Origin: Bilabrum cf. latius
Lineage: Eukaryota
DNA length: 64,000 nt
Direction of reading: 5' to 3'
Assembly: GCA_965178125.1 (NCBI GenBank)
Contig: OZ237740.1
Span: forward strand, 1,054,001-1,118,000
How positions within the stretch are numbered: position 1 is the first letter of the stretch; the number at the start of each line of letters is the position of its first letter. The notes under the pieces were generated by a model. That model was given only the letters and a program-made list of their open reading frames with translations. It was not told the DNA's origin and searched no databases. This document shows positions 15,726-47,020 of this stretch, piece by piece. The translations under genes and the position numbers were made by a program.

Positions 15726-18700
15726 TGATTCAATGGCACCCCTACTGACGAATACAGAGCATCCATGTACAGTGATGTTTGGGCCGATAGTGGTATACTG
15801 ATCGGATCAATTCCGAGTACGAGCTGAGCGAGACCAGCGCTCTCACTTAGGGGAATTCAGAAGAAGATAAAGGAAATAATTTTTACTTTTATAGAATTGT
15901 TTCTTGTCTTGTTGGCCCCATTTCCTTCGGATATGGATGGGGCGGCATCGCGGCGGAGGCCGGGAGGTGAGGGGGGACCAGTAGTTGGCGGACAACAGAG
16001 GGGCCTACAGCTGAAGGGAGGGGTGCCAGGCGGATAAGGTTTACTCAGCGAGACAGGGCGTCTTAGGGGCGGGTAAGTGTGTGTGTGTCACTGCTGCCCG
16101 GTAGTGTGTGTAATATTCTCTTGGGAGGGGGGCGGAGGCAGACCGCTCCTCCTCCCTCCGCACTCAGTACCAGCATGAACCAGCCCTCTTTTCTGTTCAT
16201 GTGGACCCCCTGACAACGGGGGGACCACGTGGCACCCACGCAGGATGGCGGCGCAGATTCGGAGGGTACCAACACTCATACCTAGCTACCAACATTTAAG
16301 CGTTGCGGAGGGCAACGGAACGGGGCCAGGGAAGCTGCGTGCGTCTAGCCATCTAGAACACGTGGACGAACTGGTGGTGGCCTTTGCCACCATCCCATTT
16401 CACCAACCAGATGAGGCTCCGTGGTCGCATCTGGTGCCGATGGCCACTGTTAGCAGGACCGTTGGTGGGTGGCTTGGGGGGCCAGGGACTTGGCTGAGTC
16501 AAGTAGGCGTGGGAGTAGGGGTGGGTGCGGTCAGTATGAGGTCCGTGCCTCATGTTGATCGCTGTAAATCCGGCTATAGGTCGGAAGCAACCCACCCTCC
16601 CGGTTGCAACAGTGGGGACGGGTGTGAGGTGGCCACGCGTGAGGTGGTCATGAGACTGGGAGCAGAGGTGTGGTCCGTGCCGTAAAATCCCCCATGTGGA
16701 GCACCTCTGTTTTTCTGGAAGCACAAAGAACCGCGTTGCGGGCCCAGGAAACTTCTGTCCTTTGGATGGCTCCGTGGCCGAAGGGGGACAGAGTGACCTG
16801 CACAGCCGAGAGGAGAGCCTGAATCTCGGATCGACCCTGGGACAGTCGCACCGGCGACACCCACCGAGAGAGCGAGGCGAGATCCTGCACAGCGTACGCT
16901 GCAGTGGAGGACCACTGTGGTGCTGCAAGAGGCACGGCAACGTGCGGACAGCAGCCGGACCCCGTATCCTCACAGAGGGTAAGGCAATGGGAGCCTGAAT
17001 AGGAGCGGACCGGGTGACGACTGTGCTGGGGCTGCGGTGAGCATACAGGACCGTGTCGAGCGTGGTGGGCTGGGCGGGATGTGCGAGCGGTGATGCCCTA
17101 ACTCGATCGAGTTCAAGATTTTTTCTTCTTTTTGCGTGGTGGCGTCCCCTAGGTCGGGGCGGCGTGGGTGTTCCTTGCGGCGTTCGATGGGCGAACAGCC
17201 AAAAGGGGGGCCCAGTGTAGATCCCGTGGCCAGTGGCAGGTAGTCCCCATAGCGGCTTGAAAGGTCCGTGCCGCCTGCCCAGTGCCCGGGGAAGCACCAG
17301 CCAAAACCAAAGCGCCACGGAAGGAGGAGATTACGAGGAGCAGGTACTAGGTACGAGAGTGGAAGCTGAGGGCAGGACAAAGCGGCCAGCCGGGCCTAGG
17401 CGGCACGGAGACGGCCGTGCTAGCGACAGACGAGTGGGCGACGGTGGGTAGCGGCGCACGAGTGGCGCGTGGCGGGAGAGGGAGAGTGCTGGGGGAGCGA
17501 AGCATTGAGCGGTTGATCGACAGATCCACATTACCAACCATCATGATTCAATGGCACCCCTACTGACGAATACAGAGCATCCATGTACAGTGATGTTTGG
17601 GCCGATAGTGGTATACTGATCGGATCAATTCCGAGTACGAGCTGAGCGAGACCAGCGCTCTCACTTAGGGGAATTCAGAAGAAGATAAAGGAAATAATTT
17701 TTACTTTTATAGAATTGTTTCTTGTCTTGTTGGCCCCATTTCCTTCGGATATGGATGGGGCGGCATCGCGGCGGAGGCCGGGAGGTGAGGGGGGACCAGT
17801 AGTTGGCGGACAACAGAGGGGCTTACAGCTGAAGGGAGGGGTGCCAGGCGGATAAGGTTTACTCAGCGAGACAGGGCGTCTTAGGGGCGGGTAAGTGTGT
17901 GTGTGTCACTGCTGCCCGGTAGTGTGTGTAATATTCTCTTGGGAGGGGGGCGGAGGCAGACCGCTCCTCCTCCCTCCGCACTCAGTACCAGCATGAACCA
18001 GCCCTCTTTTCTGTTCATGTGGACCCCCTGACAACGGGGGGACCACGTGGCACCCACGCAGGATGGCGGCGCAGATTCGGAGGGTACCAACACTCATACC
18101 TAGCTACCAACATTTAAGCGTTGCGGAGGGCAACGGAACGGGGCCAGGGAAGCTGCGTGCGTCTAGCCATCTAGAACACGTGGACGAACTGGTGGTGGCC
18201 TTTGCCACCATCCCATTTCACCAACCAGATGAGGCTCCGTGGTCGCATCTGGTGCCGATGGCCACTGTTAGCAGGACCGTTGGTGGGTGGCTTGGGGGGC
18301 CAGGGACTTGGCTGAGTCAAGTAGGCGTGGGAGTAGGGGTGGGTGCGGTCAGTATGAGGTCCGTGCCTCATGTTGATCGCTGTAAATCCGGCTATAGGTC
18401 GGAAGCAACCCACCCTCCCGGTTGCAACAGTGGGGACGGGTGTGAGGTGGCCACGCGTGAGGTGGTCATGAGACTGGGAGCAGAGGTGTGGTCCGTGCCG
18501 TAAAATCCCCCATGTGGAGCACCTCTGTTTTTCTGGAAGCACAAAGAACCGCGTTGCGGGCCCAGGAAACTTCTGTCCTTTGGATGGCTCCGTGGCCGAA
18601 GGGGGACAGAGTGACCTGCACAGCCGAGAGGAGAGCCTGAATCTCGGATCGACCCTGGGACAGTCGCACCGGCGACACCCACCGAGAGAGCGAGGCGAGA

Positions 18701-19361
18701 TCCTGCACAGCGTACGCTGCAGTGGAGGACCACTGTGGTGCTGCAAGAGGCACGGCAACGTGCGGACAGCAGCCGGACCCCGTATCCTCACAGAGGGTAA
18801 GGCAATGGGAGCCTGAATAGGAGCGGACCGGGTGACGACTGTGCTGGGGCTGCGGTGAGCATACAGGACCGTGTCGAGCGTGGTGGGCTGGGCGGGATGT
18901 GCGAGCGGTGATGCCCTAACTCGATCGAGTTCAAGATTTTTTCTTCTTTTTGCGTGGTGGCGTCCCCTAGGTCGGGGCGGCGTGGGTGTTCCTTGCGGCG
19001 TTCGATGGGCGAACAGCCAAAAGGGGGGCCCAGTGTAGATCCCGTGGCCAGTGGCAGGTAGTCCCCATAGCGGCTTGAAAGGTCCGTGCCGCCTGCCCAG
19101 TGCCCGGGGAAGCACCAGCCAAAACCAAAGCGCCACGGAAGGAGGAGATTACGAGGAGCAGGTACTAGGTACGAGAGTGGAAGCTGAGGGCAGGACAAAG
19201 CGGCCAGCCGGGCCTAGGCGGCACGGAGACGGCCGTGCTAGCGACAGACGAGTGGGCGACGGTGGGTAGCGGCGCACGAGTGGCGCGTGGCGGGAGAGGG
19301 AGAGTGCTGGGGGAGCGAAGCATTGAGCGGTTGATCGACAGATCCACATTACCAACCATCA
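15726..19361. repeat. Head-to-tail tandem duplication of a 1818-bp unit (15726-17543 and 17544-19361); candidate mobile-element relic
   Basis: Identical ORF sets offset by 1818 bp; the only difference seen is C16005 vs T17823. Each unit starts TGAT and ends ATCA. Confidence 0.95.
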
Positions 19362-19516: not shown

Positions 19517-21130
19517 ATGGGGAACGAATAGAGCACTGGAGGGGGCGGAGGGCCCGAGACGGGACCACGAAGAAAAGATAGGGAAGCCGGGCCAAGCCCT
19601 GCGATCAGCGGAGCTCCGGGCCCAGACGGCCTAGAGTCGAAGCCACTGCCCCCTCAGGTCACATCTGGCGGGTCTGCATCTCCGGGAGGGGCAGGTTCAG
19701 GGGCTGGTGGTGGCCCCGGGGGTGCACCGCCGGCACCGGACGTCACGAGCGAAGCGACTGAAGTTCTCATTGATGCGAGATTTGGCAGAAGTAAAGGGCT
19801 CAAGGCCAATATTGAGGATTTCGAGCTTCTCAAGGTGAGATTGTGACGTCAACCTCCAAAGTCTGACATTGTGAGGCAGTTCGAACCGCGTCCACTGCCG
19901 TCCTGTTGTGTCTTCGGTTCCGCAGGTGCTCGGCAAGGGAAGCTTTGGAAAAGTCATGCTTGTGCAAAAGAAGGATGACAAGAAACAGTATGCGCTGAAG
20001 ACTCTCCGAAAGGAAACGCTGCTGAAGCGCAACCAGGTAGCACACACGAAAACGGAACGGTCGGTACTTCAGGCTGTTGACCATCCGTTCATCGTAAAGC
20101 TCATGTACGCATTTCAGACGAGAGATAAACTGTACATTGTAACGGATTACTGCCCTGGTGGAGAGCTTTTCTTTTGGCTCAAGCGCGACAGAGTATTCTC
20201 ACAGGCGAGGGTGCGCTTGTACGCAGCTGAGCTCATACTGGCGCTGGAGCATTTGCACAAGCTCGACATCGTGTATCGCGACTTGAAGCCTGAGAACATC
20301 CTACTGGATGCAGACGGTCACATCAAGCTCACTGACTTCGGCCTGAGCAAGGAGGCCGTCACCGGTTTCGGACGCGAGGGCGGGACCAAGACGGTGAGGC
20401 GCGATTCGCACTTGCCCCTGTTGCATATTCAGTCAAGGTCGTCGCTTGTACATCACCACCGAGCCATCCTTCCATGCCGACCACCCCTTCCTCTCAGTTT
20501 TGCGGCACTCCCGAGTACCTGGCCCCGGAGATCCTCGAGAACGAGGGCCACGGCAAGGCGGTGGACTGGTGGTCCCTCGGCACCCTGCTGTACGAAATGT
20601 GCGCGGGCCTGCCCCCCTTCTACGACACCAACATGGAGATCATGTACGAAAAGATCATGACCGCAGACCTCGTGTTCCCCCGGCACTTCCTCCCCGAGAC
20701 GCGCTCCCTCCTCTCCGGCATGCTCAACCGCGACGTGACCAAGCGCCTGGGTTACAACGGCGCGGAGGAGCTCAAGGCACACCCGTTCTTCGCGGGCCTG
20801 GACTGGGAGAAGGTCATGCGCCGGGAGATCAAGCCGATGTTCAAGCCGCCGCCGTCCACCTCTGAGACCGACGTGCGGAACTTCGAGGAGGAGTTCACGA
20901 GGGAGACGCCCGTCGACTCGGTGGACGAGAGGGGCTACGGGCTGTCGGCCACGCAGGCCGAACGGACCCACTTCGATGACTTCACCTTTGTAGCGGACAG
21001 CGGCCTCGGGAGGTCGACGGGGTCGGGGGCGGGGGCTCTGGGCGCAGCGGGCGGCGGGGCCGCGGTGGGGAGCGGTGCGGGGGGCGCTGGCACCGATTCC
21101 TTCGGGCCGGAGGGAGGCCTGGGGCACTGA
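19517..21130 (+). CDS. AGC-family Ser/Thr kinase (SGK/PKB/S6K-like) with N-myristoylation motif; exons 19517-19834, 19926-20393, 20498-21130
   Basis: [40 protein letters not shown] and hydrophobic motif FDDFTF. Two GTGAG...CAG introns. N-terminus MGNE*S with TAG at 19529. Ends TGA. Confidence 0.93.
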
Positions 21131-21586: not shown

Positions 21587-22777
21587 TCACTGCCGGCCCT
21601 CCACCGGCAGCTGGCTGCAATCGACAGCGTTCTCCCGCAGGACGCACTGCTCGCGCTCAATAACAGCACGGCTAGCGTCATGGATGTGCACTGCACTGCT
21701 ATGCAGCATGGCCCGACCTTTGGGATTGCGCCGCAGCCCGTCGGGGCGACCCCTTCGCACTGTTCCCTCTGCTTGTGTTCCCTGACCCTTGGCTCGTCTG
21801 GCCTAGATCCAGTCCACGGCCTTGCGCAGCAGCTCCTTCCGCACCGGCACCTGCAGCGCGGCCCCTTTGTCGATGCCCTCCACCGAGTACGGGCCATACC
21901 GCACCCTCCTCAGCCGACTGACGGTGAGCCCGAAGTGCTCCATCGTGCGCCGGATCTCGCGGTTCTTGCCCTCTACCAGTGCCATGCGCAGCCACGTGTT
22001 GCGGCCCCAGTCCCCCTTCTCGGGCCTCTCCTTGAGGGTCCAGTCCTCGCCCAGCCCCTGCCTCCTGCGGTTGCCCACTGGCATCACCTGCACCTCCATG
22101 GGCTGCAGCTTCGTGCCGGAGTCGATCACGAGCCCGCGCCGCATCTGCTTGACCATGTTGGCCTGCACACCCCCGAACACACGGACGTGGTACTCCCTCC
22201 GCAGCCCGGCCTCGGGGTGCTCAAGGAACCGGGCCAGCTCGCCGTCGTCGGTTAGCAGCAGCAGCCCCTCGCTCCGGATGTCAAGCCTGCCCACCGCCTT
22301 CAAATTGGACGCATCTGGAAGCCCCATGGATTGCAGTCGTTCGAATATCGTTGGTCTTCCCTCCGGGTCTCTCCTTGTGACGACTTCCCCTGGCAGCTTG
22401 TGAGCCAAGAAAAGCTGCGGAACGTTTGGCTTCGTAGGGACCCGCATGGTCCAGTCTCGCACTGAAATACGGTCCCCTGCTTCAACGCGATCGGAGGGAT
22501 GCTGTACCTTCCGGCCATTGACGTACACCAGCCCGCGCTCCAGCAACTGCTCGGCCTCTCGCCTCGAATGCTAAGAGTACCGCGCGATTGCCTTGCAAAC
22601 GCGCTCTTGCTGCACTGGCAGCCACGAAAATTCAAATGCCGCTTGTTTTGACCGCTTCTCGGAGGTTTGCAGCTGTGAATGTAGCAAGTCGTCGCTCGAT
22701 GCAAGTGAGGCGAAGCTTCTCCTGCAAGCACGTGGTGAATGCGACGCTGCAAAGCAGCGAATTAGCTGATGCATCAT
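21587..22777 (-). CDS. RluB/RsuA-family rRNA pseudouridine synthase with S4 domain, probably organelle-targeted
   Basis: S4 motif ERVCKAIARYS*HSRREAEQLLERGLVYVNG (TAG 22571), catalytic GRLDIRSEGLLLLT and EGKNREIRR. TAG 21803 read through to TGA 21587. Confidence 0.88.
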
Positions 22778-22956
22778 GCTAGAAATTAAGCTTCCGGACT
22801 GGTTTGCGATGGTTGCGGCAGACATACTCCAATATATAGGAAATGCTATGCCCAAAACCACTCCGGATCTAATTACCACTTTTTATGCAGTGTTGTTATG
22901 AACTTCCCGAAGAACTCGACGTCTTTGGACTGACGCACATTGAATCATCTCTCACC

Positions 22957-25900
22957 ATGAACAATCAATACCCGCATAATTAGTTTTCTGGTCAATTGTG
23001 AGGGCGTGTATGTATCGGATTGTTTCTCTGCTCCCGACACTCGTGAACCAGGAACTCGCCCAGCAGTCATTTGCCTTCACTTCGCAGTCAAGGAGGCCAG
23101 GGGTTTCAACGTGAGATGATATTACAATGTTTTAAAAACCTTTGTTTGTGTCTGTCACGTGGTGTATCTCGCTCCTATCTTTGCAGGCCTTGTCGCAAAC
23201 ACCGCAGGCTATGTCGTGCAACAACAGCAACCCCCCTATGGCGTGCCGACGATGCCGATGACCCCCGCGGGGTGGCCGATGCAAGGTGGAATTCCGATGG
23301 GAGGTCACCCTGGTATGGTGGCGCCTGCGGGGCACGCGCAGCTCCCCAGTGCACACCCCAGTTTGTAGTCTCAGCAAGCGGCAGCTCAGTCCGCACCAAC
23401 AGCATCGCACACCCGGCGACCGCGCCGTACCTTTAAGATAGAGCTAGACGACGGAAAAGAGCCAGAGTGGGCCACGGAGGCCAAAAAGCGTGCAGAGGTA
23501 GAAGCTGCAGCAAGTGCAGCAGAGCCTGCAGCCACGCAAGCACCGGCCCCGCCCAGCCCCTCTCACCTGAAGAAGTCTGACGACGCCCCAACTGCACCTG
23601 CTCCCATGTCACTTCCAGCAAAATCAAAGGAGGTGAGTTCAGGAGAAGCTGGGCCTCAGAATCTGCAGATCCAGATCCGCGCAACTAGAAAAGACTTCGA
23701 CGTCAAGGATGAATCCGGAAACACCCCTGTGTGGGTGAGCAAGCCCGGCCAGGGCCAGGGCAAGGATCTCGCCCAGGGGTAGGACAAGGGCGAGCTTCGA
23801 GCGGCACCCGCCGACGTCGCATCGACGCAAGAAGCTCAGCCGATCGCGCAGGAAGCAGCCGCCAAGGCCCGCCCGCAGCCCCTAGCTCCCATGGCTCACA
23901 GCTCGAGCGCGCCCGAGCGGCTGCAGCCCGACGAGCCTGAGCCGAAGGCCATGCAGCGGGGGCAGTCCACCACGAGCGTGGGCACGAGCAGCTCCCCCAG
24001 CCACTTCGGACCTCCACCTTCTGGCGGCCACGGTGCACCGCCTGCTTCCGCAGCCAGGGCAGCCCCCAGGGCAGATGCCGTGGACGAGGCGGCAGCGGTA
24101 AAGGCAGCCCCCGAGGCATCCGACTCGGTGCTGGATGAGCCCTTCGAGCCGGGCAAGTTCTCGCCTGCCCAGCTCCGAGGCATCCGCAAGGCCATGGCGG
24201 AGATCCCAAGCAGGTCTGCCTCCGGGCCAGCGGGCCTCCTTGCCGCCGGCCTCCTAGGCTTCTCGCTGGCTCCTCGCTAGCAGACCAAGGAGAAGAAGAA
24301 GGGTAAGGGAGGCAAGGGCAGGCGGCACGACCGCGACCGTTTCTCGGAGGCGGAGCGCATGCGGCTTGTGGCCAGCCTCAAGCGCGTGCAGAACCGGTAC
24401 GACCCCAACGTCAAGCAGGCGCTGGATGAGTATTAGGAGGCGACAAGGAAGGTCACCGCCGTGCTCAACAAGCTGACGGCCGGCAATCAGAAGAAGATGA
24501 TGAAGCAGTTCGAGGAGCTCAAGGTCAAGTCCCACCGCATGCTGGTGACGATCGTGGACCTCATCTTCGACAAGGCCCTTAAGGACAAGCAGTTCCAGGG
24601 AGTCATGGCAGCCCTCATCCGGGACATCAAGCCGCTCTCCACCGAGTGGGTCAAAGGGTACGTCGAGCCCTTGTTTGTGTCCGAGGAGGAGGCAGAGGAC
24701 AACAAGGCCCTGCAGGAGATGCGCATGGCGGCCGTGCAGACCGTTATGGAGGCCGTGGACGCCAAGATGAAGAAGCCCGAGCTGGGCGCGCTGGCCCTGG
24801 CCGAGGCAAAGAAGATCCACGCCGCCATCGAGGAGCAGGCTGCCGCCCTCGAGACACCCAAGGTGACCGACGAGGAAGGCGGGGCGGCCTCTGGCGCCGG
24901 CGCGGGTGCCGGCAGCAGCAGCGCAACGGATGAGGAGCTGCAGGGCATGTCCCCTTACAAGCAGGTGGCTGACCTGGTCAACGGCAAGAGCACATACGGG
25001 CGCACGGAAGAGACGCTCAAGGAGGAGCTGGAGCAGCTCAAGAAGGAGCCAGTGGAGGCAGGATGGTACTTTGACCAGTCTGGAGACCAGCAGACTCCGC
25101 CGCCTGTGAGGTGCAACAAGGCCACAGACGAGGCATCTGCACTGCAAGAGGGCATCCGTCGCAGCCAGTTGGAGAACCTGCTCGGCTCACGCGTAATGAA
25201 AGAGTTTAAGCGACAGGACCAGTTCGCTGCGCTTGAGGAGGCCAAGCTCAAAGACGAGAAGGCTTTGGAAGACGCGCAAAACGCGGGCAGCCTGACGAAG
25301 CCGCTGCGCGACCAGCTAGAGCAGAAGAGGCTGGAGCGTGTCGAGGAGCACATGCAGATCAAGAAGCAGCTGCTCAGCAACATCTCCTTCGTGTCGCATA
25401 TCTTCCTGCAGAGGGTGCTACCTCCCACCATCATCCAGGTCAGCCTTAAGCACCTACTGCTGGGGCATCTCTCTCATGACACGTTAGTCGCGGCCAAGGA
25501 AGTGGGCGAGTCTCCCGACGAGCAGAGCGTAGAGTGCCTGTGCAACCTGATCATGCAGGTGGGCGGGCCCTTCTCTAAATTTGAGGACTAGGCTGTGCAG
25601 AAAAGGCCTGGGTACAAGCCGTTCATGCCCAAGGTGCACGAGGTGCTCTCTCAGCTGCAGCAGAATGATGACCTTGATATCCGCCTGCGGTTTTTGTGCT
25701 AGGACGTGCTGGATGCCGAGTCGAGGGGGTGGGTCGTGAAGGGCAAGCACGTCGCCGCTCTGCAGACCACTACCACGCAGGAGGAGTTCCAGAAGAAGCA
25801 GGCCGCCGAGGAGAGGGCGGCTGCCATGAAGCAGCAGAGGGGCCGCGGGCGCGGCGGTGGTCGCGGAGGCGGCGGCAGGGACTTCCGCCAGGGCGGCGGT

Positions 25901-27430
25901 GGCGGTAGGCACGGGCACGGCGGGCGGCAGGACTCGGGACGCCGCCTCCAGGGCTCCATGTCGAAGCATGGCGGCAACAGCCGGGCAAGCGGCGGCGCAG
26001 GCGGGCCCATGCTGACCCGCAATACAGAGGGTGCGAAGGGTGCCGCGTTCATGCGTGCCCGGGGGAAGGACCCTGCTGTCGGAGGCAGGGCGCCTGGGTC
26101 TGCGGGCTCTTCGAGGGCGGCTGGAGGCAGCACCGGCGGCTGGGGCGGGCGCGCAGGTCGTGATTCTCCTCGCACCAGCACACCAAGCCGTGGCTCCGGT
26201 GGAGGCTCTGGCGGCGGCTGGCGCAGTGGTGGGACCACTGGCGGTTCTGGTGCTGCACGGGGAGGCGCGGGGAGCGGTGCGGCGTCGTCGTCGTCGTCTG
26301 CCGGCCCCACCCCTCTGAAGAAGGCCAGCGAGCTGCCGTCGAGCCCTGTAGCGGCGAGCCCAGCGCCCGGAAAGGAGCCTGCCTACAGCATGACCGACAA
26401 GGAGGTCGAGCTCAAGGCGGTGTCCATGCTGGGCGAGTACAAAGGGAACGAAGGAGTCGACTCTAGGGACGAAGACGCGGCGGTTGACTTCGAAGAGGGG
26501 CTCAAAGCAGACCCTGCCACCTTTGCCTACAGGTTCGTTGGGTATGCCAGCGTGGGCATGCTGGACTCGCACGGTCCCAAGCTGGCCAGCACCGTGGCAC
26601 CAATGCTGGTTGGGCTGGTGGGTCAGGACAAGCTCGGCAAGGAGGACATCCAGAAGGGCCTGTGCAAGGGCATGGAGAAGTTCTCGTCGGTGGCCATGGA
26701 GGCGCCCAAGCTGCCGCAGTTCTTCGATGAGATTCTCGGGGGCCTGCTAGAGGCGGGCCTGATCGACTATGACACCATCTGTGGCATGCTGCCAAGGGCA
26801 GTTGCCGTGGGCAAGGGCATCGCTTGCTTCGCGGGATCCATGCTCAAGGCAGCGGCAGGAGCCAAGGTGGGCGACGAGGAGGTGGAGGCGCAGCTGGCCC
26901 GGCTAGCCCCAGCCAGTCCCTTTGACCTGGGCCAGGGCGCGCCCAAGCTGAGCCCGGAGTGCAAGAGCAGGCTGCCCAGCCTGGTGCAGGCCGTGGATTT
27001 GGCGAGGTCGATGGACGGCTGCAACCCGGAGGCCGTCGCAGCAGCGGCTGCCAAGGGCGCAGATTCCGCTGCACCGGAGGTGTTGGCCCGTGTCATCAGC
27101 GTGGCGGCGTGTGGCGCGTGCGGCAACAAGAACAGGAAGAACGAGGCGGGCATGGCTGCCGCAGTGGATGGCATCGCGGGTGTGATCAAGAGCATGCTGG
27201 GAGGGGATGCCGCCCTGGAGGCCCAGTTCCTGGAGGGTGTGGCTGGCGTGGTGCGCGAGGACTTCATGTTTCCCGTGGCATTTGGGCCCAAGGTGATCGT
27301 GAAGAGCCTGCAGGCTGCTGGTGCTCTCAGCGGTGGGGCTGCGGCAGAGCTACGCAAGGTGGCAAGTGCGCCCGGACCTGCAGGGCCCAAGACAATCGAG
27401 CAGGTCTCGGAACTCATTGCGCTCCTGTGA
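22957..27430 (+). CDS. eIF4G: Translation initiation factor eIF4G-like protein (MIF4G domain plus C-terminal HEAT/MA3-like region); exons 22957-22997, 23088-23110, 23187-27430
   Basis: MIF4G motifs VTAVLNKLT, IVDLIFDKAL, VECLCNLIMQVG and IRLRFLC*DVLD; Q/P-rich N-terminus; RGG linker. TAGs at 22981, 23366, 23780, 24278, 24434, 25589 and 25700. The two 5' introns restore the frame. Ends TGA. Confidence 0.88.
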
Positions 27431-27516
27431 TCGTGAAGGTGCCATCTGTGGCTCGGGCGGATCGTGAATGCTGTTTTATACATCATGAACAAAGTAAAAT
27501 TGTGGCCTCTCATCGG

Positions 27517-29115
27517 TCAATCTGGATGAATTGCTTCCTAACCCTTCGCCATCCCAGTAGATCTAAGGTTCTCCTTGTCCACTGTAGATTCAGCCGAACC
27601 CTGCCTCTCCAGCGACATGTCTCCTCCAGAGGTGGGGCTACTTCCGCGCGGACTAGCAGTCGCACGGCTGTCTGGCTAGCTAGGTTCGTGGGGCAGCGTG
27701 GTCGGCTCGCCACCCACCAGGTGGAAGACAAGCGCTCCAGACACAACGATGACCAAGCTCACCCAGTACCACGCACTCAACGAATTACCAAATATAGCAG
27801 CAGCAGCTAGTGCAGCCCAGGCGTCCGACGAAAGCAGCGATATGTTGAAGAAAGCTGCGTCGGCGTGTTGCAGAAAGTGCGCTGTCAGCACGTACATTGC
27901 CACAAGGCACACCACGAAGCCAGCCAGATGAAGCTGGACCCCCCCAGGGTGACTACCACTCACTGGATCCAGCCCAATCAGCTGCAGGGCACCGCGTCTC
28001 TCGAGCACGAGCACTTGCACCACGCTCACGACAGCTCCAAAGGCCCCCACGCCGCCCAGGTACTCCCCGGGCCCTCCCCGCCCCCTGACCAGCGCCTCCT
28101 GCGCGACATTGTTGCAAGCATACAGAATAGAACCCAGCACACACAGCATGTCGCCGAGAGCCCGCTGGCCCCCTTGCGACCACTCCGAGGGCGGCGTGCT
28201 CGCAGAGGCTGCAAGTCGGAGCACTTGCTCCGTGAGCGAGCGCGCCGGTGACACGCCAGACGGGGGAAGATCTGCACCGTTGCCCGCAAGGGTTGCGTTT
28301 CTTCCTCCCCCGCTTTGGCTGCCGCCACTGCTGCTGCTGTCCCCCGGATCTACAGCGTCACCGATCACCAGCACGATGAGCCCAACGAGGCAGACAAGGC
28401 CGGCACCGATGTGAATCCACGTGAACCGCCTTCGCAGGAAGATTGATTCGAGCAACATTGCCGTTGGAATGCTGAGACAATCCAACAACATGACAGACGT
28501 TAGAGTCGTGTACTAGTACGCCATCACGACGAGAAAATTCGCCTCCACGTCGGTGAAGCCAAGAACCGCATACCGCCACCATGGCACAGATAGCTCCGAA
28601 CAGCATGGCCTGCACTTCCAACAGTCCAAATTTTCACAACCGCATAGCAGAGCCGGCTGGTTATCGGGGGTTTGCAACGCGTGCGGCGCGCCAGAATCCT
28701 GCAGCCTTGGCGCAGCGGCGGGAACACGGCTCTCGACGGGTGTCCCCAGACTCTTTGCGACTGGGGAGCAGAGCAAGGGCTCGCTATCAGACCTTGATGA
28801 CTTGACACATCCATTTGTTCCGTCAGAATGCTGTCTCGTGTCCTGACCCTCTGTTGAATCGTTCAAGTGTTCACCTGTGCTGCTGGATGGCATCCTCGTG
28901 TTAGAATTTAGTCGTGGACAAGCTAGCCGGACAACCAAAAATAGCGATAACAAACTGTAAGATAATATCGATTGCGACGTGGGTGCATCAACGCCTGCGT
29001 TGGCTATCCAGGTCGAAAAAACCCCAGTACCAGCCACGAGCAGACTGATAGCCTGGCCGAACAGTACTGTAAAGAATGCCTTGTTCGTGCATATCGAGCA
29101 CGAAACCTACGCCAT
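27517..29115 (-). CDS. SLC35F1/F2-like (DUF914) solute carrier
   Basis: GQAISLL, APTSQSILSYSLL, DVEANFLVVMAY*YTTLTSVMLLDC, GDMLCVLGSILYACNNVAQE and FFNISLLSSDAW. TAGs at 29107, 28513, 27676 and 27538; stop TGA 27517. Confidence 0.9.
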
Positions 29116-29278
29116 GACTATGATTTTGTCAGACTCCCTCTGTCATGTGACTGTCTCTTGCAATGAGAAGAAGCTGCAGTTGCACAAGAGCACAGCAACA
29201 GATGACGATTGAGCCTCCTGCGAAGAACGGTGCAGAATCTAGCACAAGTAGTACTTTTAGAATATAGTACCATTGCAC

Positions 29279-32200
29279 ATGGATGAAAATAGTGGTCATG
29301 CAGGGGAGTCACACAGGGGACGAGGGAGAGGTCGTCGCAATAGGCGTGGTGGGAGGGATCGTGGTGGACGACGCGGCGGCGGCAGAGCTGGTGCAGACGG
29401 TGTATCTCAGACCGGAGGTGGAGTTAATTCGTCTACGTAGAGATAGAATACACGTGGTGGGTCGGGAACCAGGCAGGCTGGAGGACAGAGTAGGGAAACC
29501 GGTGGCTTTGCTGCCCGTGCGCTCGCAAGAGCTGCAGCCTCTGGAGCAGGAGCAGCAGATCCAAGTGAAATGTCACAAACCACGCGGGCAAGTGGTGGTT
29601 CCGGAGGAAACCGTGGTCGCGGTAGAGGCCGAGGGGCCGGTCGAGGGCGGGGTCGAGGGAGAGGCAGATCTCCGGGGTCCGGCGGGACTAGCTAGTAGCA
29701 TGGTGGGTCTGCTGCCCGCAGGGGCAGGGGTGCCAGACGTGGCGGGCGTGGTAGGGGTGGATCGCATCGTGGTGGCTCGAATGCACCCCGCGCCCGCGCG
29801 CGGCAGTCCACCGGAGCCTCCTCCGATTCTGATCCATCCGAAGGGGAGGGCCGAGGGCCTCGAGGGAGAGCGCGGGCGAGACGGATGGGGAGGGGCAGGG
29901 GGAGGAGGAGGACGATGGGTTCGGTTGAGAGCTCCTCGGAATCATCCGGTTCGTATGACAGCGACCCTGACGGAAGCAGCTCCAGCCCCATTTCCCAGCT
30001 GGGAGCAGACTCGGATGATAGAGATTCAGACTCAACCCGAAGCAGCGAGGGGGATCAGTCGAGCGTGATCTCTGATTCGTACGAGCTGAGGCAGTTTCAG
30101 GGAGCAAGGAGGAAGCACCAGTGCGCTGTGGTAGGGCTGGCGACGGCAGCCATCTCGGTTGACATCGATGCGATCGTCGGCGCGGATGCTCGCTGGGGGC
30201 AGGAGGACCCCGCAAGGCCGCTTGCCCTGCGCCGTCTGCTTTGTCCGGAACCCATGCCCTACGCTCTCGACTTCGTGAAGATAGCGCTTATTGAACACGG
30301 CGGACACATGGATCCGCCGGCGAGCGAGTTGGCCTCAAGCCGAGATGCGTTGGCGACCGTGCCTGCGGCAGCGCTGGAGCTGTCTGCCATTATCTGCGGA
30401 GCTATTGCGCAAGCGACAGCCAGCCGCATTCGACAAGAGCTTTAGGGCAGTTCGTCTGATAGCGATGCCGCATCTGCGGTGACGTTTTCCGATGACACCG
30501 ATTTGAGTGCCGCGGCCACGCGAGCCTTGATCCCCCTGCTGCAGCGCGAGCTCAGGAGACTGCCCTGCGAGGGCACCGCGCTGAGGATCCGCGAGGCGGG
30601 TGCTGACGGCACGACACATGTGGGGGCAGCCAGTCTAGCCGCAGCTGCCGGTGGCAAGACATACGAAGTGTCCATGAAGCGCAGCCAGATCTGCTCTGGC
30701 GCACTGCCGGCGCTTGCCATGATGCTGTATCCCTCCTTGCCAGTGCAGCCTTGGGAGAGCCGGAACAGGTTAGTGCAGCTGCCGGAGCCAGATGCCTCCA
30801 ACAAGGCTCGGTTGAGGAAAGTGGTGCACAGCGTCACTCGACACCTATTGGCCACTGACTAGGCGTTGCGGTCGTCTGGGGACTCTTCGATAGATAAGGC
30901 GTTCGACGAGATGGCGGCGGTCGGGCTGCGACCAGGTATCGAAGAGCAGGTCGCATCCGGTTTGCTCGCTGAGAGTCAGGTGCAGGCGAGGGAGGCCATG
31001 GGGACGAAACCTGTCGCCGCCTGGCAGATCGGAGCTATGCTTGAGAAGGTCATCTTTGGGCTGCTGCACGACCTCCCGACAAGACTGAAGGGAACCTCGG
31101 CCTCGTCGCCTTACGCGCTAGAAGGCGCCAAGCAGGCGCTTCGGTCTTGCGGGCTCCTATGGGCCACCCTTTCCAGGGAACACAGAGTGAACGAGCCCAA
31201 GACTGTCCACGACGATGTAGGGGCCCGTTGCGCGAGCGCTCGCATCGATAGGCTCCTCGGAGAGGGTGCACCTGGCACGCAGGTGCCCGCATCCCTTGTG
31301 GACAAGATGCAGCGGGAGTGGGCGCGGCGGGATGCGATGGAGTCCTCTTCGTTGCGCGCAATTATTAGCGAGCTGCAAGACTGTCTGCAGGCCAAGCCCA
31401 GCTTTGCCTTTATGGTCGTGCAGGCGTTCGGTTTGCAGCGCTGTCTCAGGCTATTGGTGAGCTGTTCCAGTCGCCCGGAGCTAGAGATCGTTTGCGAGGC
31501 GCTGCGGCTGTCGCGAGAGGTTCAAGAAGAACAAGATGGCTAGGACGGGTCTGATGGCGCGGCTGGCAGCTCCACAGCCAGCGCTGTGGCAACTGAGTTG
31601 TCCTAGGGCTTGCTGCACGCCAGGCTCGCAGCATCTTTCGTGAATTCGTACGCAGGCCTAGAGGAGGGAACCGAGTCGCAGGTGACGCCTCTGCGTGCAG
31701 TTCTCTTGTCGCTGCTTGTGGCGGCTGATGTGGAAGGCGGCCTCATCGACTGCATTGACCCGCCCTCCTTGCCTGGCGGGGCTTACGATTGGGACGGAAG
31801 CTGGCTCCGAGGGGCCATGTGGGAGCAGGAGGGCAGTCAGAGGGGGAGGCGCTCTGTGCAAGACCTAGCACACTGCCGGCCATGCAGGCCACAGGGACTT
31901 GATGAGGGATTGCTGATGCACGTTCTCTTTGGGATTGCGAGGCGGGGTACCCCGCTCGGGGTGGTGGAGCTGCTCCGATCGTTGATCGTGCTGCTAGTGC
32001 GGTGCGTGACCGGGCACGAGCTGGGACAGACCCTGTTGGAGGACTCGGACTCCTGCTACCAGCCCGAGTTTGACGGGCAATGGACGGCGGAGAGGCTAAG
32101 GGGCCATGGCAGTGATGCCGCACAGGGCTCTCTGCTCCGGCCCGAGTGGCTTGTGGCACACCAGCCTCTCCGGAATATCAAGGCGCTTGCCAGCATGGAC

Positions 32201-35200
32201 TTCATGTCCGTCAGATCGTGCAGACTGCTGCTGAGCAGCGGTATGGTCGCGTTCCTGTGTCAGAGGGTTGCGCGGTGCCTGCGCGGGCTTGCGTTCGACG
32301 TTGCCGGTTCCTGGGACGACGAGTCGTACCGGTCGTCCGAGGACGAGGTGCACGTTCTGCTGAAGAAGGGCGAAGAGTGGTCAGTGCGGCAGCTGCTTGG
32401 CTCGGCGAGCCAGCTGTACCTCCTGCGGCGCGCGCTTCCCCGCGCATGCGTGTTCAAGCCCGCCGAGGCCGAGGGCCAAACGCTTGCAGTAGCCGCGATG
32501 GTGGTGGCTGCAAGGCGGTCGGACTACCTGTGGCGCCTTGCATACGACAACGTGGGCGAAGGCGGCCAGACCAAGGCACAGACAGCCGGAGATCGTGCGG
32601 CAGATCTAGACGCAGTGGTGGGTGGATTCTTCGACGACCTTGAGGACGTGGACGAGGACGTCATCGGCGGGGCACTGATGGACGTGGACAGAGAGGGATC
32701 CGGTGGCGACGCTGCGCTGGGAGCAGCAGCGGGCGCGGCGTCTGGGGCAGGTTCAGGGGATGGGAGCAAGCCTATTCCTGGGACAGCCTCTGGGCCAGCG
32801 TCCAGCTAGCCCTCTGTGAAGCATGCCCACGAGGGCCTCGCATCTCTCAAGTCGGCCATTGCAACGCTGAGCGAGACCTCTATGCTTGACCACGACTGCG
32901 TGCGGGGCCGCGAGGTCAGGCTGCCGAGGGGGGAGCCGGCCTTCGTGATGTGTCACGGCGCCGACTCGTTTGGCGATGTAGATACAGACAGAGACGCGTG
33001 TTTGCCGAGCCTGGCAGCCACTGGGCTCCCAAGCGTGCCGGATCATCTGGAGTGGCTGTGTGAAGAGCTGGCCCAAGAGACGCTCCGTATGAAGACACTG
33101 GCGGCAGCAGCAGGGCTGCTCGGGTCGCACGCTTCGTCCGCCGATTTAGTGGCTGACTCAAGCACCGATGCACCGGCTGCCAGCGGTCGCGCCGCAACCG
33201 ACCCACTCGCAGCTAAGCCGGCACGATTCTCGCTGGATTCGGCTTGGCTGCGCGACTGGAGGCACATGCGGTCGACAGGGCTCAGACAGCTTAGCTTTGC
33301 TCGAGATTGGGCCGACTGTGCATTTGGGATCCTCGCTGCCCCCGTTGCCACGGCATTGGACCACGCCTTGTCCGCGATGGATCTCGCGCATACCGGCTCG
33401 CCCATGGAGTGCGTGGGTCGGTTTGGCGCGATCTTGTCATGCTCCATGGCCTTTGGCCAGGTGTTGCAGGCCTCGTATGCTCATCATTGTGCTGGCAAGG
33501 AGGACGGGAGCGATGGTGGTGCCTCTTCACTAGCAGCTAGTGATGGAGGGGAAGGCCTCTGGGAACAGCTGGTCGAGGCGCAGGCACAGCAGCGGTCTCC
33601 CGCCTCGGCATCGTCTGCGTCTAAAGCAAAACGGATTGGCGCAGCGGGTCTCGCAGGCCTGTAGCAGCGGCTGGAGTATGCACCTACAAGCCAGAGCTTG
33701 GACAAGCTTGTGCTCGTGTGTCTGCCCAGCATTCAGACCCAGGTGGTGCGCGGCTCCAAGCCGTCCGGGTCCTTGGCGCCGCAAGCGGCAGCCTAGTCCG
33801 CACCAGCAATGTCGCGCACCCGTCGGCCGCGCCGTATTTTCAAGATTGAGAAGGATGGAAAGGAGCCAGAGTGGGCCGCAGAAGCTAAAAAGCGCCAGGA
33901 GGAAGACGAAGCAGCAACGAGGACCGCTGCCGCACAAGCACCGGCCCCGCCCAGCTCACTTAGCCATCATCCACAAGCCGAAGCAGCCGCATAGTGCCAG
34001 GCAGCTCCTCTCCCAATCACGGTGTCCAGCGATGTTGTACCGGCTCAAGCACTGACCCTAAAATAGATTAGGCGTTCCGTGTCAAATGAAAGTCGCGGGC
34101 CTGCTCCTGATGCGTCCGAAGGTGTCGACGTTAAACCACGCGCCATGCCAGATATGCCCACTCCGTCGAGTGCCTCGCTTCTGGTCGTTACGGTGGCAAA
34201 CTGCGCGCGAGATCCATGCAAAGCGATATCCGAGGCTCGACCTACGCACCCGTCGGTCGTTCGTCTGTTTCAGCGACGCAGCACCGCGATCCAGGAGCTG
34301 GCAGACAACGACGAAGCCGGCGAGCTGCCCCCGATGATGGGCTTTCTGGCCGATATTCCTAGGGTCATGCCTCTTTCTAGCCGCATCTCGTACGTCTCTA
34401 GCCTCACGAGCGACCATGATGAGCGCGAAGTCGGCCTATTTGAGGGCGACATCGACCGCATTGCACGGGGTGAGGATTTCCGTCAGTCGGTCCTGGCCTT
34501 CGTGCTGGATATGATGCGCAGCCGTCCAGAAGAGGTACGGCCGCTCCCTACCATCGTATTCAAGGGAGAAGAGGGGGCAGGGCCCGGGCCGTCTCGGGAG
34601 GGGCTAGTACTGCTTGCAAACGTGCTTTTCTCCACCGAGCCCGTGTGGCGCGCTGAGGTAGACGCCAAGATCGCCGCTGGCACCAAAGGTGTCAAGTCGG
34701 CCGAGGACGTTGTGCTGGACGGCTGCTCAGAGGACGGCACATCGCCAGGACATCCTGTGGGGGACGCGCTCCTGTGGGCACTGCCTCTGTTCAAGCCATC
34801 GCCGGACGGGCGGCACGTGGTGCCAGTGCCGAGCGAGTGCATTCCGTGGGGGCAGCCGGTCCCTGGTGCTCCGAAGCGCTGGGTGTCCGCGCCACGCTAG
34901 GGCAAGAAGAAGACAAAGAAACAGAAGGTGGTGAAGGAGGCGCAGCCAATCCGGTACCCTCGGTCCAGGAGCATGGGCATTCGTATCAGGCAGGCGCTGT
35001 TTAAGGCTGCCGGGCGGCTGTTGGGGATGTCGGTCCTCAGCCGGCAGCCCCTTGGTGTGGCTCTGCCGCAGATCATGACAGATTTTCTGCGGTTTCCTGC
35101 CGCCAGCTCCATCGAGTCTCTGATCGTTGGTTCGGGGTTTGCTGCTGCGGACGCCTTCAGACAGCAGCTCGACTTCGAGCAGACATAGGTAGCTGCATTC

Positions 35201-35812
35201 GCCGAGGCCACAGAGGCCGCGAGGCCTGGCCCCAGCGCGCGAGCCACGGGGTGGCTGCGGCCCTCTCCCGACTTGCTCGCGGGGGCGTCGCAGAGCGCAG
35301 CAGCGCTGGTGCGAGCCATGGGAGAGGTGGATGCAGGGTTTGCGCGCCAGTGCAAGGCCATTCTGCAGGTTGACTTGGGATACGGGATCGAGCCAAGCGT
35401 TGAGGAACGGGCCAGAGAGGTCCTCGAGAGCGGCGGAGACTCCACAAGCAGGCGCGCCGCTGAGGCCGTCTCTGGTGTACTGGCTGCCTGGGTCCCTCCC
35501 GAGACGGGATTCGAGGACATGCGACTAGAGTACTCCGGGCGGGGGGACGGGCTGCCTGCGGGCGCCTCGCCAGACTGCCAGCTTGCATTCATGCAGGAGT
35601 GCGTGGTGAGGCAGGGCGGGGGACGCGTGGTGGGCGGGTTTGAGGCACCTACGAGCCGCGTGGCGAGCAGGCTGCTGGCGGGTCCGAAGGGTACAAAAGG
35701 TCGCAAGCGGAAGGGTGGGGCGGGCTCTGGCGGCTGGCAAGCTGACCCAGCTGCAGGAAAACGAGACGACGAGGGCGCGGGCGGCTGCAAGTCGGACGAT
35801 GAGGACGAGGAA

Positions 35813-35844
<32 letters not shown>

Positions 35845-36856
35845 AGGCACGCCACCCTAGGCCGGTGGAGCTGGCTAGGCGAGCGGGACGCCGTCCGGCG
35901 CCGCAACGGGCGGGGCAGCCGCTGCAGGCAAAGATGCGCCATCCAGCCCGGGCAGCGCCGCACCGCTGAAGCCGAAGCACGGAGGGAAACACTGGTTGCG
36001 CTACCTGCAGGCCGACGGTGCTCTCCACGTCTCGGAAGATCCTCTGTACTTCGAGCACGGCACGCGGTAGGAGACGGAGGCCCAGGCGAGGGAGAGGAGG
36101 GAGGAGGAGGAGGCGTGCGGACCGCTGCCCAAGGAGTTCCCCTTGACCGTTGCAGTGCCGTCGCCGCTTTTGCGCAACGACACCAAGCTGCAGTTCGTGA
36201 GGCTGCATGCGGCGCGGCTGTGCCTTGGCAGCCCGCTCGCGGCTGATGCAGAGTCCCTGCTTATCGTGCAACAGCGGGTCACTCAGCGCGAGTGGGACCA
36301 GATGGGCTCGTCTGGCGGCTTGCACGACCTGCGAGAGTCGGTGCAGTGCTCCTTTGAAATGCTGGCCTCGATGAAGACCCGGGCGTGTGACGCGGCCGCC
36401 ATGCGAGACGGCTTTTCTGAGATGGTGACCCGCGCGAGGGTGTTCTCTGCCGCGGAGCTGCAGGCCATGTTCCGCGGGTCTAGGAGTATCGACGTGCGCG
36501 CCTGGCGCGCGGCTTCGAGGCCGCACCCGCCCAACCTGCGCAGCCCGGTGCTTGGCTGGCTGTGGGACGAGATCGGAGGGATGGACGAAGCCTTGAAGCG
36601 GGCCCTCCTTCGTTTCTGGACGGGGAGCTCGACGCCTCCGGTGGGGGGGTTCCGGTCGGGCGTGCAAATGGAGGGCAAGCTTAAGGTGTGCGTGTCTCAT
36701 CAGTCGAGCGGCGGAGACGATGCTGACGGTAGGCTGCCCAAGTCGAGCACGTGCGACTTGCAGCTGCAGCTGCCGGCGTACAGCAGCCGAGCAGTCCTCG
36801 GCAGACAACTGCGGAGGGCCATTGAAATGGCTGGGGAAGGGTATGGCTTGCTCTGA
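29279..36856 (+). CDS. HECT-domain E3 ubiquitin ligase (~2525 aa) with RGG-rich N-terminus
   Basis: One frame with 18 in-frame TAGs, including tandem TAGTAG at 29693-29698. HECT motifs IVFKGEEGAGPGPSREG, LFKAAGRLLG, LLRFWTGSSTPPVGGF and LPKSSTCDLQLQLPAYSS (catalytic Cys); C-terminus EGYGLL then TGA. Confidence 0.9.
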
Positions 36857-36961
36857 GTGGACTTGTAGCACGCTGCATTTTGTGTCACCCGGAGCCCGAA
36901 CACGCTAGGTTGTCCTCGAATAATCAAAACATTGTCGCCACCTTCAAGTGTGGGCCACAGG

Positions 36962-39316
36962 ATGGGGACCAAAACTGAACTGCTACTTGGTACAGCTGGC
37001 TTCTTGATATCCCTTGCAGTGGCTGGGGGTGTAGCCGGGTTGCTATTGCCCGGCAAGCTAGGCGAGGCTGGCACTTTGATCGGGCTCACGTTCATGTGGT
37101 ACGCCGTCGCCATCGGCCTCACCCTGCTCAACAAGTACCTCTTTAGCTATCTCGAGGGCGGCGAATTCGATTTTCCCGTTAGCTTGTCGGCTTGTCATTT
37201 GATATTGTAGTTTATCGTAGCGTCGCTGCTTATGAAGCTGCGCCTCAACCTGAAAGCCTGCGGAAGCGGGTCGCCTAAGGCTGCCAGTGAGGCAAAGCTA
37301 CAGGCAAAATTGTTCGAGTGGGCCAACTTCGTATCGCTGGCCCTTCCGGTGGGTTGTGCCACGGCGGCAGACATTGGGCTCAGCAATTGGTCCGTCACAC
37401 GAGTCCCAGTTGCAGTCTACACCGTCGCAAAGGGTTCGTCGGTGGTGTTCAATCTAGTTTTTAGCATCCTCATGGGATACTAGCGCTTCTTTCCGTCGGT
37501 GGTGGGGATCATTTTGCTTATCTTTGCCGGCGTAGCCATGACTAGCTTCCCGAGCAAATCCGAAATGCATGAGCCGGACCCCGAGCAAATCCGGAACGGG
37601 ACGGCCACTCTTGCGCCAGACCAGGCTGAAAACAGCAGCTCCGTTGATGACGACGTGCGCACGGCCACACTGATCGCAGGGACGCTGGCCGCAGTCGGCG
37701 CCGCCATGGCGAATGCCCTCCGATGGGTGGGCACCGAGCGCATGATGAGGAAGGCCGAAGAAGGTGGCGCATGGAACAACGCAGCGGGCGGTTTCGGGTA
37801 GGGGATGAGCAGTGCGGCCGCTATTGAGGACAAGGGGCTGGGCCTGCGGGGCTCCCCCGGGACCGGAGCCCTGGCCAGCAGTGTAGCCCTGTCTGCTCGC
37901 CCCGATGGTGGTGGAGTGTTGGCGGCCGGGCATGGCCGGGGAGCGAGGGATGGTGGAATTGGTGGCTTGCAGGGCAGCAAGGTCGGCAAGATGGCAGGCT
38001 TGCAGGGCAGCAAGGTCGGCAGGGCGGCAGGTGGTTTTGGCGATGACGCTATGCCTGATACAGAGGCGTCGATTGCGGCTGCGTTTGGCATGGGCAGCGG
38101 GAATAGGGGGTATCGAGCGTCAACCCATGATGAAAGTGGGGCGCGACACGGTCGGGCTGCGAGGGGGGGCCGCGGGGGTAGCCGACGGGGGCAGGACGAG
38201 GACACGCTTGTGTTTGCTGGCGGTGAAGATGGTACGATTGGAGATGTGCTGGAACTGCCGCAAGGGTCATCGATAGACTTGGAGAAGCAGGGGCTGCTGG
38301 CAGGGTCAGAGTCCGACGAGGCCGAGGATGCGAGCGGGGCGCATGGGCTTGGCGAACTTGACAATGGCGGTTTGCTCGGAGCAGACAGACTTGCAAGAGC
38401 TGGATCAGAGGTTGGAATGCCGAGAGGAGCTCTCGGCATGACCCCGACGACACGGGGGGCACATCTCCAAGGCGGGGGCAGGGCTGGCACGGGTGCTTTG
38501 GACACGGACACCGGCGGGGCAGGCACCGCGACAGGGAACTAGGGCGGGCAGGGGGGCGCGTCATCTTTAGCTCTAGATGGACGGGCTGGGGTGCGTCGCT
38601 TGGCGGGAAACGAACTCGACGGCGGGGCGCTCGGACCCACTCCTGCAGCTTTTGGTTAGGGCACTGCGGACGTCAACGGAGACAGGGGCACAGACACCAG
38701 CTCGTCGACGGTCGTAGCAGCAGCAGTCCCTAGTGGTGAGAGGGAGGAACGCGGGGGGCACGTCAAGGTCGATCCTGTGCTTCTGCTGTCCGTTGTGGCC
38801 CCGGCATCGGCTGCCATGCTGCTTGGCCCCGCCCTGCTTTTGGAGGGGACGGGCATGGCTGCGTCCAGGGTCTGGCACACTGCGGGAGATGCTCCGGTGG
38901 CCTGGCTGGGTCTGCTGGGGGGAGGCCTGGCTGCCTTCATCCTGCTCTTTGCCGAGATGGGTGTGATCTCACGGACGAGTGCGCTCACCATCACGGTGAT
39001 TGGACACGCAAAGGAGACGCTGGTCATCCTTCTGTCCGTGGCAGTGTACGGGGACTAGTTGTCGGCGCTCAACGTGTGCGGGATCTTCGTAGCAATGGCG
39101 GGGATGGTTCTGTACTCGTGGTCCAAGCTTTCTAAGCGAGACGGGCCGGAAGAAGAAACCAGCGGTAGCAGTGCCAGTGGCGCAGGCGTGCACGGAGGGG
39201 CCGGGAGCGGCAGTGACGATAAGCCACTTTCCGCAGCAGCCGAGGAGGGGGGGGCAGGCGGTGCCCGACGAAGGGCGCCCTCTCCGGGCCAGCATAATCA
39301 GGCAAGTACAATGTAA
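36962..39316 (+). CDS. SLC35C2/YMD8-like nucleotide-sugar/TPT-family transporter with a long internal low-complexity loop
   Basis: WYAVAIGLTLLNKYLF, FDFPVSLSACHLIL*F, DIGLSNWS, YTVAKGSS, ALRW and RTSALTITVIGHAKE. TAGs at 37208, 37481, 37799, 38540, 38657 and 39056; ends TAA 39314-39316. Confidence 0.88.
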
Positions 39317-46985: not shown

Positions 46986-46988
46986 CTG
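46441..46988. repeat. 72-bp coding minisatellite, ~7.6 copies (AQAGGAPEGEAQGEAAPAQAPAAA on the minus strand)
   Basis: TCCCTGTGCC recurs at 46441, 46513 ... 46801; only a few single-base variants between copies. Confidence 0.95.
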
Positions 46989-47020
46989 AAAAAATCTGAA
47001 ATCTGAAATCTGAAATCTGA
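46986..47020. repeat. (TCTGAAA)n heptamer tract, i.e. (TTTCAGA)n on the element strand; second tract at 42212-42227
   Basis: ctgaaaaaa-tctgaaa-tctgaaa-tctgaaa-tctga at 46986-47020, and tctgaaa-tctgaaaaa at 42212-42227. Confidence 0.9.

Follow-up and report, generated by a model that had tools for sequence, protein, structure and literature searches.

A conserved segment of the eIF4G N-terminus most likely copied into a neighbouring HECT ubiquitin ligase gene

In human eIF4G, the PAM1 motif is positioned N-terminal to the eIF4E site and the MIF4G domain, and residues 166–200 of eIF4G1 bind RRM2 of PABP (PDB 4F02; PMC12709193). A PABP-type MLLE domain allows the HECT ligase UBR5 (EDD1) to bind the PAM2 motif of Paip2 and to direct Paip2 to degradation (PMC11326040, PMC3759697). 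Paip1 and Paip2 are PABP-interacting proteins that compete with eIF4G for PABP (PMC3759697). Here we describe a 64,000 nt stretch of DNA from Bilabrum cf. latius (contig OZ237740.1, positions 1,054,001–1,118,000; the window), in which the genes for eIF4G and for a HECT E3 ligase share a short coding segment. The segment is referred to as Box 1 or copy A in eIF4G and as copy B in the ligase.

Box 1 is like human PAM1 in being a short conserved segment within a disordered eIF4G N-terminus upstream of MIF4G, but it has no detectable sequence relation to the human motif. The ligase is like UBR5 in carrying a module of the cap/poly(A) translation machinery N-terminal to its catalytic domain, putatively with a shared partner. 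While UBR5 has a folded PABP domain and binds the ligands of PABP, the ligase of the window has a copy of a linear eIF4G segment and would bind the ligand of eIF4G. A Pfam search of the 2547-residue open reading frame (ORF) of the ligase (E ≤ 0.01) returned HECT only and no MLLE (PABC) domain. Because an MLLE domain was not found and the catalytic domain is closest to HUWE1, the ligase does not belong to the UBR5 family. If Box 1 binds PABP, the ligase would compete with eIF4G for one surface as Paip1 and Paip2 do, although these have their own PAM1/PAM2 motifs and no catalytic domain.

The preliminary description of this DNA had claimed that a piece of the eIF4G N-terminus is duplicated inside the ligase, and our comparisons bore this out. 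Alignment of the eIF4G gene with the HECT gene by blastn gave a single alignment of 184 columns with 75% identity and 2 gaps (E 1.8e-30). When the segment was compared to the whole window, the next best match after the two copies had an E value of 0.032. The repeat search detected the same pair as two direct families of two copies each, 23374–23443/33781–33850 (81%, spacing 10407) and 23450–23513/33854–33917 (78%, spacing 10404), and the ungapped parts of both copies were identical at 57 of 70, 51 of 67 and 30 of 38 positions. Peptide versions from copy A, copy B and the relative introduced below identified only these two places by tblastn; the remaining matches were Ala/Gln/Pro-rich low complexity (E ≥ 8e-4) and were discarded. 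No third copy of the segment was present in the window. Both copies are coding and in frame, as had been proposed: with TAG read as sense they lie in ORFs of 1428 and 2525 codons without internal TAA or TGA, and copy B has one in-frame TAG where copy A has CAG. The 59 aligned codons differ at 40 bases (10, 8 and 22 at codon positions 1, 2 and 3). Contigs from public sequencing runs were identical to the window across both copies (23098–23956 and 33557–34762 in run X5; 23299–28051 and 32184–35593 in run X6), and the duplication is thus not an assembly artefact of the window.

The direction of transfer had been left open, and orthologous HECT genes of relatives had been proposed as a check. A profile of both copies was searched against 1.84 billion representative proteins (E ≤ 0.001) and gave three matches, of which only P0003 was a true relative. 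The other two were unrelated repeat proteins that fitted only the Ala/Pro-rich tail. P0003 represents the N-terminus of the eIF4G of a relative (128 amino acids, on a 611-nt contig), and in this protein Box 1 is joined directly to downstream sequence that is found in eIF4G only, including a further motif named Box 2. When the linker of the ligase was searched among shorter proteins, P0006 and P0007 were found, with 86% and 79% identity and a contig of 3633 nt each. In P0006 one open frame runs through the site, and a 61-residue block containing copy B is missing, both in the local alignment and in the MAFFT alignment. The gap edges of this block are ambiguous by a few residues; about 95 residues downstream of it are 100% identical in P0006. 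Since the relative's ligase lacks the block while the relative's eIF4G has the motif, Box 1 is most likely native to eIF4G and was added to the ligase by copying from eIF4G to HECT in this lineage. This agrees with the earlier claim that the ligase acquired the segment. The copying most likely took place after the split from the nearest sampled relative, with one insertion in this lineage as the simplest history. Other searches gave no additional relatives. P0003 as a query returned only itself, and a near-length protein search with eIF4G residues 40–560 had no match among 7999 scored candidates. Motif alignments against contigs of JGI metagenomes and GTDB genomes gave 60, 599 and 56 pattern stretches, none of which was confirmed by tblastn, and the TAG-free stretch with Box 1 and Box 2 had no usable match in the protein atlas.

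Selection on both copies had also been suggested, with the ratio of nonsynonymous to synonymous divergence (dN/dS) as the proposed check. We applied the Nei-Gojobori method to the 59 aligned codons with TAG taken as Gln, which affected one codon. Between copy A and copy B, dS was 0.67 and dN was 0.17, and the resulting dN/dS of 0.26 was clearly below 1 (bootstrap 0.11–0.48; 0 of 2000 resamples reached 1). The first 38 codons, the core, had a dN/dS of 0.13 at a dS of 0.81, and the remaining 21 codons a dN/dS of 0.65. The values of dS between the copies (0.67–0.81) indicate that the copying event was not recent, and the many synonymous differences exclude a recent homogenisation by gene conversion. 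In 46 ungapped columns of copy A, copy B and P0003, 29 were the same in all versions and 4 differed in all three, and changes confined to a single version numbered 5 for copy A, 6 for the relative and 2 for copy B; three further gap columns were specific to copy A. Among the 26 core columns, 3 changes and one indel were specific to copy A and 5 changes to the relative. No core change was specific to copy B, compared to about 20–24 replacements expected on its branch under neutrality, if half of the synonymous distance is assigned to that branch. The HECT copy has thus been kept at the apparent ancestral sequence, with some drift of the eIF4G copies in either lineage. The earlier suggestion is thus strengthened, and the codon comparisons support that selection acts on the protein sequence of the segment.

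Table 1. Location in the window of the shared segment, the genes carrying it and further features
Feature	Position	Strand	Details
eIF4G gene	22957..27430	+	exons 22957-22997, 23088-23110, 23208-27430
Copy A (donor), Box 1	23374..23557	+	eIF4G residues 78-138
Box 2	23687..23749	+	eIF4G from residue 182; R..R..F.....G..P.W spacing as in Box 1
MIF4G domain, best-scoring stretch	24446..24640	+	Pfam PF02854, residues 443-507 of P0001
SLC35F-type transporter gene between donor and recipient	27517..29139	-	Pfam PF06027 E 8.6e-60
HECT E3 ligase gene	29279..36856	+	2525 codons, 18 in-frame TAG, no internal TAA/TGA, TGA end
61-residue block absent from P0006	33770..33952	+	HECT residues about 1498-1558; MAFFT gap columns 59-119
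Copy B (recipient)	33781..33955	+	HECT residues 1502-1559
HECT catalytic domain, very large inserts	34553..36853	+	alignment to HUWE1 HECT

Repair of breaks and replication forks can copy short nearby stretches by templated insertion or by ectopic (non-allelic) gene conversion. In the proposed event, about 61 codons from the disordered N-terminus of eIF4G would have been copied into the variable linker of the ligase. The locus resembles a templated insertion in that one short tract with sharp borders lies 10.4 kb downstream of its donor on the same strand, and in that Ser/Pro-rich stretches are present at both donor flanks and at the uninterrupted site of the relative. The sequence S-P-S-H follows the segment in eIF4G and is also seen at the empty HECT site of the relative. 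Based on this arrangement, local templated repair or ectopic conversion was probably the route, helped by short Ser/Pro-coding similarity at both junctions. The locus is unlike a typical templated insertion in that the event was fixed, is in the orientation and reading frame of the donor and was conserved afterwards; the microhomology is deduced from protein alignments only. Two other features of the window bear on the route of copying. A tandem duplication at 15726–19318 consists of a 1818-bp unit (99.94% identity over 1775 nt), each unit with a 344-codon minus-strand ORF without a Pfam match. A reverse-transcriptase ORF is present on the minus strand at 42328–47109 (1593 codons, 10 TAG as sense, Pfam RVT_1 E 2.5e-13), and its 5' part contains 8 copies of a 72-nt tandem repeat coding for an Ala/Gln/Pro/Gly-rich unit (46296–47060). 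Given these neighbours, an RNA-mediated route may also be considered.

The HECT domain of the recipient was recognized by Pfam PF00632 (E 8.8e-31), with a strong match at profile positions 160–305, and the best PDB match of the catalytic domain was HUWE1 (E 2.2e-17). The C-lobe is encoded at 36395–36850, and its Cys 2492 (36752–36754) was aligned to the catalytic Cys of HUWE1. The N-lobe was only weakly matched to HUWE1, in the stretch around the motif I-V-F-K-G-E-E-G (independent E 57), which starts at residue 1759 and is followed by about 570 insert residues before the profile-matched part. By inserts between N-lobe and C-lobe the domain is stretched to about 770 residues. These inserts include a GAG/GAC-rich acidic run (35783–35863), where unrelated contigs piled up to very high depth and produced many false joints. 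The preliminary description had placed copy B just upstream of the HECT domain. The order is correct, but the distance is larger than this wording implies: copy B ends at residue 1559, full conservation with the relative sets in at about residue 1640, and the N-lobe motif follows at 1759. Copy B sits in a variable Ser/Pro/Ala-rich linker, roughly 120–200 residues N-terminal of the domain. AlphaFold2 (AF2) predicted no fold around copy B (mean predicted local distance difference test score (pLDDT) 36.5, low confidence).

A removal of the segment from the HECT mRNA by splicing, which had been raised as a concern, was not observed. None of the splice joints in the four runs removed copy B, and in run X6 the stretch 32184–35593 lies on one contig of 3410 nt. 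The difference in depth between eIF4G and the ligase was roughly forty-fold and was alike in X6 and the spliced runs X7 and X8, and by this shared pattern we read X6 as RNA-like. No run was listed as RNA, yet X7 and X8 carry the spliced form of eIF4G. A stronger argument that the segment is translated comes from the unbroken frame of 2525 codons together with the selection seen at the codon level than from the run contigs.

The eIF4G gene starts with ATG at 22957 and comprises 1428 codons after exon joining, with 7 in-frame TAG and a TGA end. Two introns with GT..AG borders at its 5' end (22998–23087, 90 nt; 23111–23207, 97 nt) enclose a micro-exon of 23 nt, and the joints 22997>23088 and 23110>23208 were seen in spliced contigs of X7 and X8. 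The MIF4G domain (Pfam PF02854, E 2.7e-13, 50.5 bits versus a cut-off of 30.8) was matched in 2 stretches, as an insert splits the domain; the TAG-free MIF4G stretch retrieved MIF4G/eIF4G clusters from the protein atlas (score 0.92). MA3 and W2 domains are present in animal eIF4G and absent in yeast. In the eIF4G of the window neither was found by Pfam (E ≤ 0.01), which returned MIF4G only. MIF4G begins some 300 residues downstream of Box 1.

Box 1 leads from a basic run through F-K-I-E, D-G, E-P-E-W-A and K-K-R and an Ala/Glu-rich stretch to the end Q-A-P-A-P-P-S, and the basic run and the four short motifs are invariant in all three versions, followed by the conserved end. The region of copy A was predicted by AF2 to be unfolded save one helix (mean pLDDT 58.1, low confidence). 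In each copy the sole predicted element, also of low confidence, was a helix starting at E-W after the D-G turn. Box 2, of which no copy is present in the ligase, has 22 residues that are identical between eIF4G and P0003. Within the remaining eIF4G, the Box 1 core aligned best to Box 2, but the repeat is weak: the local score of 39 was reached by 6 of 500 shuffles for copy A and by 128 of 500 for the copy B version.

The pattern of invariant residues suggests a specific docking segment and more than a simple basic patch, and we lean towards a functional docking segment that is shared by eIF4G and the ligase. Through its copy, the ligase would be able to reach the partner that Box 1 has in eIF4G. 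The docking element would consist of an extended basic and hydrophobic stretch followed by a short helix, and the ligase could ubiquitinate the partner or its neighbours, or compete with eIF4G for the partner. PABP is the leading candidate for this partner, since Box 1 is N-terminal and precedes MIF4G like PAM1 in human eIF4G, but this assignment by position is tentative and we would not expect it to hold. The pattern of a basic run, alternating hydrophobic and basic residues and Asp-Gly in Box 1 presumably resembles the PABP-binding motif of human eIF4G; the core of the human motif had no match in a literature text search. No PABP gene is present in the window. It is unlikely, though conceivable, that the ligase received the PABP-docking segment of eIF4G soon after the split from the relatives and uses it to sit on poly(A)-bound PABP, where it would compete with eIF4G and ubiquitinate components of the closed-loop messenger ribonucleoprotein. 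If so, it would represent a newly evolved ubiquitin switch on translation and a mirror image of UBR5 with its borrowed MLLE domain, caught early, with donor, recipient and empty ancestral site all still readable. The preliminary description had also considered a relevance for a recoded organism, in termination or quality control; of this, the sense use of TAG is a fact and the rest is speculation.

A partner other than PABP would be compatible with a function in both proteins. The segment could be a long bipartite nuclear localization signal (R-R-x-R-R ... K-K-R), an RNA-binding basic patch or a different docking site, and the ligase would then have gained a location or a partner that has nothing to do with the poly(A) tail. 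This is a serious possibility, somewhat ahead of PABP in our estimate and still short of an even chance. The two basic clusters about 19 residues apart fit a bipartite signal, no similarity to a solved eIF4G peptide was found, and Box 2, which has the same spacing, is better conserved and was not copied, may itself be the genuine PABP site. On the other side, the invariant non-basic residues F-K-I-E, D-G and E-P-E-W-A would not be needed in a simple import signal or RNA patch, and the N-terminal place before MIF4G agrees with PAM1 of human eIF4G (PMC12709193). The segment could also lack any function, if templated repair dropped a piece of the nearby, highly expressed eIF4G into a tolerant linker, where it is translated and only by accident conserved. 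The site is in the most variable part of the alignment, while 95 residues further downstream are identical in the relative, no fold was predicted around copy B, and the rate estimates rest on 59 codons, the back half of which has a dN/dS of 0.65. Accidental conservation is hard to reconcile with a dN/dS of 0.13 in the core at a dS of 0.81, with the absence of core changes specific to copy B and with a length that is a multiple of three and keeps the frame; we regard a functionless insertion as unlikely.

With regard to the history of the locus, the insertion may be older than the split and may have been deleted later in the relative, between the short Ser/Pro repeats that flank it. Such an order of events would suit the high dS between the copies, the Ser/Pro-rich sequence on both sides could promote a deletion, and copy B is like the relative's eIF4G at 5 positions and one indel where copy A differs. 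These shared states are explained equally well by changes in copy A after the duplication, and two events are needed instead of one, which makes an old insertion rather improbable. UBR5 offers a general precedent for yet another role of the segment, as its MLLE domain reportedly also binds its own catalytic domain. By analogy, Box 1 could be the site where the ligase or another enzyme recognises eIF4G, and copy B a pseudosubstrate or decoy regulator. Nothing in the present data points to such substrate mimicry, and we consider it highly improbable.

Several observations weigh against the proposed transfer of a docking segment from eIF4G to the ligase, or against PABP as its partner. Outside this small lineage Box 1 had no match among the 1.84 billion representative proteins. 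The polarity rests on one eIF4G fragment and one HECT fragment, possibly from two relatives, and the relative may have lost the block. A relative-rate test between copy A and copy B was not significant (p 0.26 overall, 0.083 in the core). Run X6, which has the contig across copy B, is labelled 'RNA? (probably DNA)', and in X7 and X8, which are clearly spliced, coverage of the HECT gene is patchy and is thin over copy B. Box 1, Box 2 and the profile of the three sequences were each searched against all PDB chains by phmmer or hmmsearch (E ≤ 10); no chain named eIF4G was retrieved and the solved PAM1 peptide was not matched. The pattern [YF]....L[LIVMFW] of the canonical eIF4E site had no match in the 1428 residues of eIF4G, where a divergent site is possible; with the canonical site missing, the eIF4G N-terminus may depart from the textbook layout.

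The best PDB match of Box 1 (23399–23500) was to the KIF1C chain 9ko8_A (99 residues, E 0.33–0.59), which we rejected as a chance pattern match. Both sequences have R-R-x-P-R-R, hydrophobic-x-I and G-K-D/E-P-x-W-A in common, probably by chance. Designed ankyrin repeats in the PDB reached a whole-sequence E of 1.6e-4 summed over repeats, with no single stretch passing, and were likewise attributed to chance.

The usual view is that short docking motifs arise in disordered regions through point mutation. In the window, an E3 ligase seems to have received a conserved segment with its motif ready-made, in a single step and from a translation factor, and the copy is under clear purifying selection. 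Such a transfer of a linear segment between unrelated neighbouring genes, with an empty site kept in a relative, is unusual, and among the papers listed by literature text searches (supplementary files were outside their scope) none described a HECT ligase that carries a motif of the eIF4G type. If both copies share a partner, the locus would amount to a natural experiment, parallel to the PABP-like domain of UBR5, in which a ubiquitin ligase is rewired onto the translation machinery. The 61-residue block also provides a handle on the target of the ligase and on the function of the N-terminal motif of eIF4G in this TAG-recoding lineage, which has received little study.

TAG is a sense codon across the window (e.g., at 23366, 33794, 53014 and 53044), and only TAA and TGA close long ORFs. 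It was aligned to Asn and Gln of E. coli RibB, to His of RluB, to CAG of copy A, and to Leu and Glu in the relative's HECT; the TAGs of an ABC1 kinase were outside the aligned part. Gln is the likeliest meaning. Scans of the window for tRNA genes and Rfam families found none. Runs under four coded organism names from four studies matched the stretch 27000–36999, with word shares of 0.26 to 1.00. In the four runs that were compared (three names), long contigs had no differing letter save one C>T in a 151-nt contig of X8. As runs under differing names match in this way, the organism may occur in samples that bear the names of other species, either as an associate or as a contaminant.

Some minor features of the donor gene and of the repeat were also noted. 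The last 21 nt of the repeat (23537–23557/33935–33955) are identical between the copies, third positions included, as are the first 12 nt, while elsewhere in the repeat nearly half of the synonymous sites differ; a preference for certain codons, a short conversion tract of later date or chance may account for this identity. Of the five substitutions found only in copy A, three gave threonines (23435–23437, 23480–23482 and 23534–23536), by a change of Ile to Thr after the basic run and of Ala to Thr twice, and the donor copy may thereby have gained phosphorylation sites. A gene for an AGC-type kinase is located 2 kb upstream (19875–21127), and the start of eIF4G is 77 nt from a divergent pseudouridine synthase ORF on the minus strand (21587–22879).

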